Positions 20,583 through 30,038 of a stretch of 34,773 nucleotides of DNA are shown piece by piece. The stretch is from a virus (taxonomy: Duplodnaviria; Caudoviricetes), in the IMG/VR virus record IMGVR_UViG_3300046778_000343, positions 1 to 34,773 of that record; one strand, given 5' to 3'. The notes beneath the pieces are model-generated. The model was not told the DNA's origin. It saw only the letters and a list, made by a program, of their open reading frames with translations, and made no database searches. The translations under genes were made by a program, and so were the position numbers. The first letter of the stretch is position 1. Every line of letters begins with the position of its first letter.

Positions 20583-21872
20583 ATGAGAAATATAGTAGAT
20601 AAGGCAGCAGGTTGGTTACTATCCAAAGCAAGTCGAAACATTGTGGTATCTGAATATCACAAACGCTCGGCTGGTAAGCGTATAGACTATACGCGCCAAG
20701 TAACACAACTGAACCGTAAGGAGGTAAAAGATTATATAAATGCGATATCATCAGCAACCGACCCCGATAATCCACGCATGGGCGATTGGTTTCGGTTCCG
20801 TCATATTTTCAAAAACGATGACCATTTGATTAGTTGTGTCGAAAATCGGTATATGCCCGTGCAATGTGCCCCCTACAAATTAGTAGATAGTAACGGTGAC
20901 GAAAACGAGGTCGCAAAAAAACTACTTGAACGTCCATGGATGTTAGACCTTGTTAAAATGGTTGTCTGTGAAAATTTTGAGGGTGTAAAACTCCTTTGCA
21001 TGTTTGAGACGAACGAAAATGGCGAGCTCAAAGAAATAGAGGAAATACCGCAATCCAATTTTATACCACAAAAGGGTATCATCATAAATGAAGAGTACGA
21101 CGACCAGGGCACAAGTTATCGCGAGGGCATTTATAAAAATTACTATTTCCAAGTCGGCAACGATTGGAACCTCGGCGATTATTCGGGATTAGCAACTATT
21201 GTGCTAGCTAAAAAGTTGGCACTGGGTGCATGGCTGTCATATATTGACAAATACGGTGTGCCTCCCATATTTGCTATTACCGATCGAATGGATGAAACAA
21301 GACGGGATGAACTTTTTGAAATGTTGGAAAATTTCCGAATGAATCATTTTGCCGTATTGCAGGGCAATGAAAAAATAGAAACACCACAAGGTTATAATGT
21401 GGATGCTTTCAATACTTTCAAATCGTTGATATCAGATATTGCGGACAAAGCAATTAGTAAACGTCTTTTGGGTAGTTCGGGATTGACAGACGAAAAATCA
21501 TTTGTTGGTTCGGCCGAGGCACAAGAACGCATCTTAAAAATGCGTATTGAGGTTGACAAACTGAAATTCAAATACATATTCAATACCGAGATAAAACCAC
21601 GGCTAATCAAACTAAGCCCGATATATGCCCCATTGGCAAATCTTGATTTTGAATATGACGAAAGCGAATCATTGACCCTCAAAGAGATATTGGAGGCAAT
21701 AAAAGACTTATCGCCATACTTTGAATTTGATATTGAGGAATTGATACAAATAACGGGATTACCTATTACCAAAATAAAAAGCATGCTTGGTCTGTCATTC
21801 GATGACCCGAAAAAGGAGGAAAAAGACCCATCGAAAGAAACCGACCCTCAAAAAAAAAAAAGGATAAATTAA
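20583..21872 (+). CDS. Portal protein (Mu gp29/DUF935-like)
   Basis: DDHL, W..YIDKYGVP, ISKRLLG motifs; ends PQKKK in an A12 tract. Confidence 0.9.
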   Translation: MRNIVDKAAGWLLSKASRNIVVSEYHKRSAGKRIDYTRQVTQLNRKEVKDYINAISSATDPDNPRMGDWFRFRHIFKNDDHLISCVENRYMPVQCAPYKLVDSNGDENEVAKKLLERPWMLDLVKMVVCENFEGVKLLCMFETNENGELKEIEEIPQSNFIPQKGIIINEEYDDQGTSYREGIYKNYYFQVGNDWNLGDYSGLATIVLAKKLALGAWLSYIDKYGVPPIFAITDRMDETRRDELFEMLENFRMNHFAVLQGNEKIETPQGYNVDAFNTFKSLISDIADKAISKRLLGSSGLTDEKSFVGSAEAQERILKMRIEVDKLKFKYIFNTEIKPRLIKLSPIYAPLANLDFEYDESESLTLKEILEAIKDLSPYFEFDIEELIQITGLPITKIKSMLGLSFDDPKKEEKDPSKETDPQKKKRIN

Positions 21873-23143
21873 AAAGTTTCTCTTTGCTTGGACCATTGGC
21901 ATGGCAAACTCCCAATTTTAAAAATACGGGATTGGTTTATGCAGGCACATGGGATAAGGCATTTGATGAGCTGATAGAGCAAATACGGGAAGGCAAAACC
22001 ACTGCCAACGATATAGACAAAGAGTTTATATTGAAAACCTATGACCGATTGAACAAAGCGGCTCAAAACGGATATGGTAAAGAGTATTATAGTGATGATG
22101 TTTCCCGTAAGATGCGCGAAAACCTTTTACGCTTTGCAACTACCAAAACACACATACAACAAAAGGAATTACAACTTTATAGTGATTCTATTGATAGCAA
22201 AAAACAATATGCCGAGGAATCAAAAAAATATCTGAATTTGCAGAATGGGCAATATTTGAATGTGCAGGCGGCTTGGTCGGCAAGGTCTGCCCAGTCAGCA
22301 AGGCAATGGGGTGAGTTTATGCGAGACAAAGATATTTACGGATGTCTCAAAGTCCGCACCATGAATGACGGCGATGTAAGACCGGCACATGCTGTTTTGG
22401 AGGGTTTTGTTATCAGTTTGGATGATCCCGATATTGACAGATACATTGTGCCGTTCGACCCAAATTGCCGATGCTGGAACGAGCAAACCAGAGACAAACC
22501 GAACGACCAAGCCCCGGACTGGGAACCCGACCCACAATGGCAAGGAAACCCGGGGCGAACTGGTGAGGTATTCAATGATGATAATAGTTATAATCAGCAA
22601 GTCGAAAACAACGAAACCCGTTTGGAGATACGCAGGCAAGCCGAACTCACAAAACAATACCTGCCCTATAATCGCATCATTAATGTAGGCGAAAACAAAG
22701 TATATGTCAATGATTTTGCCGATACCTCGGACATGGAGCAAAACATCGAGGCGGCCAAGAAAATGGCCGAGGCTTTGGAAAAAGATATCTATATACGATA
22801 TCATGTGGAGGGTGGCATCGTGAAAGGGCATAAAAACCCCGAATTGGGTATCGGTAAAGTCTCAACACTGGGCGACCTCAAAACATACGACGGCACAAGT
22901 AAGTTTGAAAACTTTATAAAAAACAACATCAAGAAAGCTAATCATCAAGGGGCACAATATGTTGTTTTGGATGTAAGCAATAAGGCTGATTTGTCCGATA
23001 TCAATAGACTATTATATAGCACATTGAGAGAAAATAACAAGAATATCAAACGAGTAGTTTTAATAAAAAACAAACAAGTAGTTGAAATAACCCGAAAACA
23101 ATTGGATAAAAAGGACTTTTCCAAATTAGACCCTATCAAATAA
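21860..23143 (+). CDS. MuF (gp30-like) head protein with C-terminal CdiA-like PD-(D/E)xK nuclease domain; likely made as a portal fusion
   Basis: MuF motif D..VRPAHA.LEG...P..PNCRC; C-terminal NPE...GDLK...IKKA..QGA..VVLD; only a TTG start at 21884, and the frame is open back into the A12 tract. Confidence 0.8.
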   Translation, partial: KDKLKSFSLLGPLAWQTPNFKNTGLVYAGTWDKAFDELIEQIREGKTTANDIDKEFILKTYDRLNKAAQNGYGKEYYSDDVSRKMRENLLRFATTKTHIQQKELQLYSDSIDSKKQYAEESKKYLNLQNGQYLNVQAAWSARSAQSARQWGEFMRDKDIYGCLKVRTMNDGDVRPAHAVLEGFVISLDDPDIDRYIVPFDPNCRCWNEQTRDKPNDQAPDWEPDPQWQGNPGRTGEVFNDDNSYNQQVENNETRLEIRRQAELTKQYLPYNRIINVGENKVYVNDFADTSDMEQNIEAAKKMAEALEKDIYIRYHVEGGIVKGHKNPELGIGKVSTLGDLKTYDGTSKFENFIKNNIKKANHQGAQYVVLDVSNKADLSDINRLLYSTLRENNKNIKRVVLIKNKQVVEITRKQLDKKDFSKLDPIK

Positions 23144-23216
23144 AAAAGAGCAACAAACTAGGGGTCTATCGCTCTTTTCGGGAGATACTCAGTCCTTACG
23201 GGCTTTGCATCATTAG
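23142..23216 (-). ncRNA. Candidate ~75-nt structured small RNA convergent with the MuF-nuclease gene
   Basis: Minus-strand TATATTTG -7 box (23228-23221); GUAA-capped hairpin 23211-23184; 15-bp terminator stem 23178-23144 with three G-U pairs valid only on the minus strand, ending in U6. Confidence 0.6.
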
Positions 23217-23238
23217 ACTACAAATATATGAGTTATTT

Positions 23239-23820
23239 ATGGCATCAAGAAACAAACCGCCTAATTTTTCGCTTGTGGCTAAGGAACTTATCGGAAAACG
23301 TCCGCGAATGGTAGCCATAGAAGCAATGAAGTTTTTTAAAGATTGTTTCCAAAAGGGAGGTTGGACTGATGAGAGTTTCCAAGAATGGAAAAAGAGGACC
23401 AGCCCATTGGGAGGAAAAAAGATATTGATTGGTGGTGCTGGGGCAAATACAATGAACCTCATGCAAAGCATCCGCACATTGGAGGAAAGCGAAAAGCAGG
23501 TGCGCACGGGTACTGAATTGATATATGGAGCCACACACAACGAGGGTGCCGAAATAACGGTAACACTCAAAATGAAAAAATATTGGTGGGCAAAGTATTA
23601 TGAGTTTGCAGGTAAATTGACCAAAACGAAAAACGGCAAAGTCTCAAACTCGGCTAAAAATAGGACTACCAATGCCAAAGCGGAATATTGCAAGCGTATG
23701 GCACTTATGAAAGTAGGTAGCAAAATAAAGATTCCGAAACGGCAATTTATTGGAGAAAGTAAAACGTTGCTCAATCAATTTGAAAAGTGGTTTGCTGACC
23801 AGATAGACGAATTGAAATGA
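23239..23820 (+). CDS. Virion morphogenesis / tail completion protein (Mu gpG, P2 gpS-like)
   Basis: F...GW....W..R, L..SI, YGATHNEG, IPKRQFIG motifs. Confidence 0.88.
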   Translation: MASRNKPPNFSLVAKELIGKRPRMVAIEAMKFFKDCFQKGGWTDESFQEWKKRTSPLGGKKILIGGAGANTMNLMQSIRTLEESEKQVRTGTELIYGATHNEGAEITVTLKMKKYWWAKYYEFAGKLTKTKNGKVSNSAKNRTTNAKAEYCKRMALMKVGSKIKIPKRQFIGESKTLLNQFEKWFADQIDELK

Positions 23821-28546: not shown

Positions 28547-28983
28547 TCCAAAATCTTTTTAAATACACTATTGACCCATTCCTCGCCCTCAATACTCTCT
28601 ATTTTCTTGATGCCTGCAATTAGTTGCGATTCGGTAGCATGATTCAAGTTCCTAACCCCACCACATGCACGGCATGCCATTGTATAGGCTTTCTTTTTGT
28701 CATATTCTCGCTTTGCATGTTTACATATCTGACGGATAAGATAGAATAGCTTTTTGCGTTGTTTATCCATTCGTGTAGTCTCTTTGCTTGGTTGCTTGAT
28801 GCTTTCGTCCAATGCTTTGCATAAATGTTGCAATTCATCTACATGTAAGTCTTTGCTAGTATTCACACGATAGTTGTTTTCTAGTATCTCGCGTTTTTCC
28901 TCGTCTGTCATTCCAATTTTTCCGCACAAAGTGTGATACTTTTTGATGAGACCTGCTTTTTGTCTGTCAATTGTTGTTTTCAT
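28543..28983 (-). CDS. GemA/gp16-like (DUF1018-like) protein
   Basis: LIKKYH....KIGMTDEEKR..L...Y...TSKDL...EL..L pattern; ATG 28983 overlaps the methyltransferase stop. Confidence 0.7.
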   Translation of the reverse strand: MKTTIDRQKAGLIKKYHTLCGKIGMTDEEKREILENNYRVNTSKDLHVDELQHLCKALDESIKQPSKETTRMDKQRKKLFYLIRQICKHAKREYDKKKAYTMACRACGGVRNLNHATESQLIAGIKKIESIEGEEWVNSVFKKILE

Positions 28984-30038
28984 AACTTTTTGAGCCATTG
29001 GTTATAAATTCTACTTGCAACCTGGGCAACCATCACGGGAGGAACTGACATGCCAATTACATAATTGGTTGGATTGCCTCCAAAATCATAATCTTTCGGG
29101 TATGTCCCGGACTCACACAATTCGTCAAAATTTCGATAGCGTGGATAGTCAAATAATAAGGCGTTATCATTGGCCGTAACCGTATTGGACACTCTATCCA
29201 TGTACAAAAAGCGATAGTTAAATTGTGCATTCGGATTGCGTCCAAGTCGGGCACTACATGCCGCCATATCCAAATCTCCATGTATTTTCGCATCCCAAAG
29301 TTGTTTGTAATGGTCGGTCAATGGTCTATCTGTATAATCGTGGAATATCTCTCTAAATGGTATCTCTGGTTCGTCAAATTCGAGGTCGATTGTAGGTCGC
29401 TCGGTGAACATATCCACTTGCTCCAAAAATGGACCTGCCAAATCTTTTCTCAATCCGATAAAAAACACGCGCTCTCTTTTTTGAGGTACACCCATTTTTG
29501 AGGCATTGAGCAAAAAATGTTGTACATAGTAGCCTGCATTTTCTAATTCCTCATATACTTTTATCACATAGTCTATTGCAGGACCTTGCAACATTCCTTT
29601 CACATTCTCGGCAATCACAACTTTTGGTTGCAAGCGTTTTGCGAGGTCTATAAAATCGAAAAACAATGTATCAAGGACTTGTTCTTGCTGACCCTCACGA
29701 AACTTTTTCTTTTTGCCCCAATCTTTTTCTCTGTTACCACACATTGAGAATGTGCTGCATGGTGGCGAACCGTCCAATATATCAAGCTCGTAAAGCTCTT
29801 TTGGCAGGTCCTCCATATTCTTAAATTCTTGGATGGGAGCAAGAAACGGATATTTCGGATTATGATTTTTCATGTACACATCCATCATACGATGGTCAAT
29901 CTCATTGCATCCGATAACATCGAACCCTGCCAACTTATAACCCATCGTGCTACCGCCACCACATGCAAAGCATGAAAAAACTTTGCCTTTATCTTTTGTG
30001 AAAGTTGCATCTTTCAATTTCCAATCGTATTTGAACAT
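28980..30038 (-). CDS. Orphan DNA (cytosine-5) methyltransferase
   Basis: Motifs I FACGGG, IV GSPPC, VI ENV, VIII QKRERVF, X GMSVPP. Confidence 0.95.
   Translation of the reverse strand: MFKYDWKLKDATFTKDKGKVFSCFACGGGSTMGYKLAGFDVIGCNEIDHRMMDVYMKNHNPKYPFLAPIQEFKNMEDLPKELYELDILDGSPPCSTFSMCGNREKDWGKKKKFREGQQEQVLDTLFFDFIDLAKRLQPKVVIAENVKGMLQGPAIDYVIKVYEELENAGYYVQHFLLNASKMGVPQKRERVFFIGLRKDLAGPFLEQVDMFTERPTIDLEFDEPEIPFREIFHDYTDRPLTDHYKQLWDAKIHGDLDMAACSARLGRNPNAQFNYRFLYMDRVSNTVTANDNALLFDYPRYRNFDELCESGTYPKDYDFGGNPTNYVIGMSVPPVMVAQVASRIYNQWLKKL

Follow-up and report, generated by a model that had tools for sequence, protein, structure and literature searches.

The 95-nt gap behind the nuclease-tipped MuF gene of a Mu-like phage holds, in place of a small immunity protein gene, a convergent RNA unit that very probably specifies a direct RNA antitoxin of one kind or another. 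Judged from its sequence and from comparison with relatives, it is probably an immunity factor made of RNA, a decoy shaped like a tRNA acceptor end that binds and blocks a predicted tRNase. The unit lies in a 34,773-nt stretch of viral DNA, hereafter called the window, and its counterparts occupy the same place in other Mu-like phages of Bacteroidota.

A minus-strand RNA unit convergent with the late operon

Read on the minus strand, convergent with the late operon, the unit consists of a promoter box, a 5' stem-loop, an unpaired UCCC and a terminator hairpin, in that order; box, stem-loop and terminator can be read from the sequence where the original prediction had placed them. The unit is present in one copy in the window, without tandem repeats. 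Its box (TATATTTG, 23228-23221) is of the type TAnnTTTG, described as a sigma-A (-7) element in Bacteroidota (PMC7366714, PMC9723704), and is kept in relatives. Matches to the box in the window are at chance level (35 observed vs 39.9 expected); its weight derives from conservation among relatives (the chance of finding a box within such a slot is 0.093) and not from its occurrence by itself. As one of these papers places the element at -12 to -5 from the start site (PMC9723704), transcription is predicted to start near 23216 and to give an RNA of ~75 nt.

The stem-loop (23184-23211, minus strand), a predicted tRNA acceptor-end mimic on the evidence of folding, covariation and tRNA comparison, comprises a 5-bp outer stem, an AA/GA 2x2 loop, an inner stem and a GUAA tetraloop. 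The GNRA cap proposed earlier is thus present in the window, but a GNRA loop is not conserved in relatives. The U-C-C-C left unpaired after the stem (23180-23183, minus strand) would, by comparison with relatives, be the equivalent of the discriminator plus CC(A). Folding places a 16-bp intrinsic terminator at 23142-23179 on the minus strand (hairpin 23179-23143), with three internal and one terminal G-U pairs and a U tract that overlaps the toxin stop codon (23141-23143). The claim that these G-U pairs make the hairpin favour the minus strand was borne out by its fold z-score (-8.1 vs -1.8 on the plus strand); the corresponding values for the whole unit were -6.8 and -1.35, and the 5' stem-loop by itself gave -3.0. 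A stretch of self-complementarity also links the last codons of the toxin to the loop of the terminator.

The gap contains no plus-strand ORF of its own of at least 25 aa, and the minus-strand frames near it overlap the flanking genes. ARAGORN returned 0 tRNA genes and no cloverleaf match, and Rfam gave nothing above the gathering score for the window stretch (five weak matches, best E 0.086) or for 16 relatives' loci. Elsewhere, a 367-nt contig (X1 record 2) carries the window's 5' domain (matching 23181-23214) between different flanks, with a CCA-ending sequence before the domain and a different terminator-like hairpin after it, and looks like another tandem array. In RNA run X19, contigs of a relative extend across much of the operon, their strand and level not being readable.

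The portal-MuF-nuclease gene

Upstream of the unit, a Mu-type portal gene (20583-21872, plus strand; PF06074, E 5e-47) adjoins a gene with a MuF domain and a C-terminal toxin (PF06074, PF04233 and PF18451 were all matched across the region). The MuF-CdiA_C frame (21884-23143, plus strand; open from 21806) encodes 419 aa from a TTG and is likely the C-terminal half of a portal fusion; its CdiA_C profile match has an E of 1e-5 and a Pfam score of 26.1, just short of the cut-off of 26.6. Its PD-(D/E)XK nuclease tip (22691-23140, plus strand) retains the motif P-E...D-x-K intact (E320, D331, K333) and gave a confident structure model (pLDDT 88). The best structural match of the model was 4G6V (Foldseek E 1.9e-4; VIA Z 11.3, rmsd 3.2 over 121 residues, next row 7.5), at a sequence identity of 13-14%. 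The 4G6V toxin, CdiA-CT 1026b, cuts the acceptor stem of tRNA-Ala according to a review (PMC9086364). We predict that the window tip is a tRNase of this kind, acceptor-stem cutting being suggested by the fold and the shape of the RNA.

A PDB sequence search yielded nothing useful, tblastn against GenBank phages found no match, and an alignment of the toxin only was too variable for a locus scan. The immunity slot is bounded downstream by a Mu G-like virion morphogenesis gene (gene G; 23239-23820, plus strand; PF05069, E 0.0014, below the cut-off), the nearest relatives of which lie in Dysgonomonas genomes. Relatives were found in cultured Dysgonomonas, Bacteroides, Carboxylicivirga and Flavobacteriales strains, which makes the role of MuF toxins testable. 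The early region of the window also includes a C5 cytosine DNA methylase gene (28980-30038).

An A12 run at the end of the portal gene (21850-21861, plus strand) is a likely slippage site. Runs of at least nine A's occur at the portal-MuF junction in 57/79 representatives (A9-A12), most relatives having A10. Portal and MuF are fused in frame in 40 representatives, 38 of which have a -1-frame stop within three codons, and MuF is reached by a -1 shift in 15, the window among them; a close relative has two A's fewer than the window's twelve and hence the in-frame form. The portal frameshift assumed in the original prediction would be needed in these 15; in the 40 the fusion is already in frame. 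Programmed slippage at the run is likely, and would yield portal as well as fusion and set the ratio of portal to portal-toxin. The run also precedes toxin-less MuF genes (L073, L142, L220).

The immunity slot among related phages

From 229 sequences (228 loci and the window), 51 were dropped for having no usable same-strand MuF upstream of gene G, and the remainder gave 97 distinct junctions and 81 representatives. The RNA unit was found behind 65/67 nuclease tips and behind 0/14 others. Promoter and hairpin RNA followed 52/54 CdiA_C tips, 46 by script alone, with six added by hand. Of these six, L007, L188 and L197 have the same fold and had drawn a flag because of long antisense frames, L194 has a variant box, L019 is truncated at the contig end and L079 is displaced. 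The unit also followed 7/7 other PD-(D/E)XK-like tips and 6/6 putative BECR-like tips, both classes resting in part on assignment by eye; CdiA_C matches were obtained for four of the seven and a weak LPD3 lead for one of the six (L226), and an atlas lookup of L218 returned nothing. Two further independent CdiA_C finds (L279, L280) have the RNA, and in another lineage two CdiA_C genes lack it and have co-directional ORFs (81 and 86 aa).

The slot behind non-nuclease tips (ART, papain-like and HExxH-type) is filled otherwise: all 8, including L204, which was reassigned by hand, have a convergent protein gene there, of 64-91 aa and driven by the same convergent box. These protein genes support the claim that the RNA stands where an immunity gene should be. 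Tips interchange among relatives (CdiA_C, ART, Gln_amidase and a weak metallopeptidase). Four of the five short MuF genes have no box and the fifth, L120, is followed by a convergent ORF. The co-occurrence proposed earlier was therefore recovered, with the element behind nuclease tips and gone behind short MuF genes, and among the representatives no toxin-less MuF homologue was followed by it. The L120 ORF (L120:2638-2962), of 91 aa and with the same box, is a possible orphan protein immunity gene. Other arrangements observed were 16 loci (including L103, L122, L137, L139, L143 and L179) in which MuF is encoded downstream of gene G and on the other strand, and a MuF with a weak intein-like C-terminal match (L125:610-1656; PF14890, E 4e-4).

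Presence of the RNA followed the state of the toxin's active site. Only L165 and L215 of the 54 CdiA_C loci have no RNA, and both have lost the catalytic E and K. With E and K intact the RNA was present in 50 and absent in 0; with them altered it was present in 2 (L194, L214) and absent in 2 (Fisher p 0.004, a value that, like others in this comparison, is optimistic because relatives are not independent).

Distances between RNAs and toxins revealed no overall co-divergence (Mantel rho 0.03; partial -0.04, p 0.72), and the partial correlation of RNA with MuF distance was 0.15 (p 0.009). A nearest-neighbour test preferred the toxin to gene G (18:7, p 0.04) but not to MuF (15:11, p 0.56). Individual swaps did agree with RNA and toxin changing together, as in L080/L164, L085/L089 and L008/L010/L013, where flanks are close and tips and RNAs differ, and L157 has the same tip and RNA as the window on another backbone.

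Covariation of the 5' domain and likeness to tRNA acceptor ends

In relatives, the 5' domain has a 2x2 loop set between an inner stem and an outer stem of 4-8 bp. Conservation is highest in this loop (GC/AA in 19/46 parses), and the motif occurs in 36/50 units. Because MAFFT failed on the divergent RNAs, covariation was counted by loop anchoring and in a close subset. With loop-only anchoring of 36 units, 141/180 outer-stem cells were paired against a null of 76.6 +/- 7.6, with mixed pair types at every outer-stem position; across 14 close units, 93.7% of cells were paired and 5/9 pairs were compensatory, well above slid controls. The folding programs used were pseudoknot-free, and the nested structure is backed by the covariation.

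The domain commonly ends in N-C-C(-A), the closest relatives having C-C-A and the window CCC. CC lies ahead of the terminator in 23/35 units, compared with 25/174 other terminators. In 37 units hand-picked as well parsed, CC directly follows the stem in 20 and CCA in 10. The stem often opens at the predicted start site, its position 1 being base 4 or 5 downstream of the box in 17 of the 37, like a flush tRNA 5' end. Similarity of these 37 units, which are not independent, to an incomplete set of 31 acceptor ends from two Dysgonomonas genomes averaged 7.84 of 11 positions vs 7.07 +/- 0.16; a stricter test of two pairs plus discriminator gave p 0.08. Exact 11/11 matches were found for L164 (tRNA-Cys) and L154 (tRNA-Gly), with L005, L008 and L149 one position off tRNA-Cys. 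Other units match Trp, Gln or His at the discriminator and the first two pairs, and L013, read by eye, equals Asn across a 4-bp register. The window unit itself is weaker than these, matching at 8 of 11 positions (best match Lys), with G1-C72, U73 and CCC. As the terminator follows the mimic's end, a free 3' CCA would need processing. The comparison thus lends support to the decoy RNA of the original prediction, refined here to a putative tRNA acceptor-end-like decoy.

Some units depart from this plan. L003, L148, L153, L155 and L203 each have a pair of differing hairpin domains ahead of a shared terminator, which suggests multi-unit RNAs with a single toxin. Behind the putative BECR/LPD3-like tips (L174, L191, L202, L218, L219, L226), the convergent box is followed by a single long hairpin, which is bulged and lacks the N-C-C end; these tips possibly have a second class of RNA decoy.

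Extra, toxin-free and tandem copies

Four loci (L008, L012, L014, L162) carry a second complete unit with its own promoter, that of L008 being 97% identical over 123 nt to the sole unit of L010. In L079, which has a nuclease plus peptidase double tip and a small ORF, an L164-type RNA lies 249 nt away. A model of the window's RNA subtype, run on 151 family genomes, matched in 10: four matches lay beside toxins, three were taken as chance and three were toxin-free units (L284, L285, L286). All three toxin-free units have a terminator, L284 and L286 have a consensus box, and L285 is a tandem of two mimics. Their genomes, which may be incomplete, gave no toxin match in a search that matched two positive controls. 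Another toxin-free tandem, L278, was accepted on context (E 0.69), in a genome with a toxin elsewhere. Tandem units of different sequence were confined to orphan loci. The model found no new match in 150 genomes sampled across the order, so that orphans of the window subtype are known from the family sample only. Taken together, extra, toxin-free and tandem copies argue for action in trans.

Matches inside coding regions (L287-L289) were rejected as units and taken as chance, as was L231. Three of the orphan loci (L284, L285, L278) adjoin Mu-like remnants, next to genes that are G-like or resemble the small terminase; on the large contig of L286 no such gene was seen.

A proposed acceptor-end decoy and its alternatives

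If the unit is an acceptor-end decoy, the ~75-nt RNA would be made constitutively in the lysogen, and the portal-MuF-nuclease fusion would be made late in infection at a level set by A-run slippage. The fusion would enter the virion together with the portal and be delivered to the next cell by injection. There the toxin would cut the acceptor stem, likely of a U73 tRNA, tRNA-Cys being the most likely target for the window subtype. As a substrate that is cut poorly or is sacrificed, the RNA would fill the toxin's active site and protect the producer and those lysogens or hosts with a matching unit. Extended to the relatives, this amounts to a polymorphic RNA immunity, which we give an even chance as a joint proposition: virion-borne tRNases with different tRNA targets would each be blocked by a mini acceptor-end copy of the target; the mimics would be Cys-, Gly-, Asn-, Trp- and Gln-like, and the RNA sequence would predict the toxin's target (Cys-type for the window, L005 and L164, Gly for L154, Asn for L013, Trp for L080 and Gln for L071); other ribonuclease tips would use other hairpin decoys; and hosts would gather units into toxin-free arrays as acquired immunity.

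The likeness to tRNA might instead be incidental to a direct, aptamer-like antitoxin whose toxin reads the 2x2 loop and may cut other RNA or DNA. The prominence of that loop, the absence of CC from about half of the units and the long single hairpins of the putative BECR-like tips all point this way, but the enrichment of CC before the terminator, the complete matches to two different tRNAs and a toxin fold that is that of an acceptor-stem tRNase make it unlikely. Distinctly unlikely is an OOP-like or type I-like regulator that, by cis-antisense action or convergent transcription, would destabilise the late mRNA where the toxin gene ends and keep toxin low in the lysogen. The small overlap with the coding sequence, earlier thought to limit antisense pairing, does not exclude it, since the convergent RNA would be wholly complementary to the intercistronic late mRNA; the terminator also reaches at least 5 nt into the coding sequence in 19/50 units. 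Orphan copies speak against such a regulator, as do tandem units, orphan second units and the displaced copy of L079; a covarying non-canonical structure would be superfluous for antisense, and trans pairing showed no preference for the cognate over non-cognate upstream mRNA (14/36).

We regard it as very improbable that the unit is just a (bidirectional) terminator whose promoter box arose by chance, or that the RNA serves the nuclease as an activating cofactor. An mRNA-strand U tract in 28/50 hairpins and a box at chance level by itself would suit a terminator, and loss together with a dead enzyme is also expected of a cofactor; against these readings stand a separate covarying 5' domain, a unit missing behind short MuF genes and kept without a toxin, and the weak plus-strand fold in the window.

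Significance and comparison with known systems

Should the acceptor-end decoy be confirmed, RNA would be added to the ways in which delivered (polymorphic) toxins are known to be countered, and antitoxin RNAs would gain a new principle, substrate mimicry. MuF nuclease genes without an immunity ORF would be explained, the tRNA target of a toxin would be readable from the adjoining RNA, and RNA immunity arrays, invisible to protein-centred annotation, would be expected. No description of the element was found in the literature searched; supplements of RNA-motif surveys such as PMC10690425 may list the motif.

MuF polymorphic toxins of temperate phages have been described (Jamet 2017, PMC5576092), Bxa among them (PMC11699363), and a CdiA-2 1026b-like domain (cd13442) appears there as a MuF tip. 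The window shares with these systems a MuF with a C-terminal toxin by the portal and an immunity slot directly downstream, and differs in that its slot holds a non-coding RNA and its toxin is joined to the portal via an A-run. By its sequence, the unit belongs to the MuF toxin systems, the exception being its predicted non-protein immunity. The CdiA-CT/CdiI pair of Burkholderia pseudomallei 1026b (4G6V) shares the toxin fold of the window tip (Z 11.3), and CdiI occludes the active site of CdiA-CT (PMC9086364), the role proposed here for the RNA; it differs in its protein immunity, its CDI delivery and its low identity (13-14%) to the window tip.

Type III toxin-antitoxin systems (ToxIN, CptIN, TenpIN; AbiF, AvcID) share the proposal that a small RNA directly inhibits a protein toxin. 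As described for ToxIN, CptIN and TenpIN (PMC12283969), their RNA lies upstream in the same operon, as tandem pseudoknotted repeats before a terminator. Unlike it, the window RNA is a single downstream convergent gene with plain stems and a tRNA-like end, and adjoins a PD-(D/E)XK toxin on a predicted virion protein. Of the type III-like antitoxin first suggested, the likened mode of action may stand, but the gene order and tandem repeats of those systems are not found in the window. Convergent type I antitoxins and lambda OOP RNA are likewise convergent small RNAs at a gene's 3' end, and act by pairing; unlike these, the present units persist in copies without toxin mRNA and have a structure that covaries. 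The orphan immunity gene arrays of Bacteroidales consist of protein immunity units kept without a toxin and stacked in tandem, whereas the units described here are RNAs of ~30 nt.
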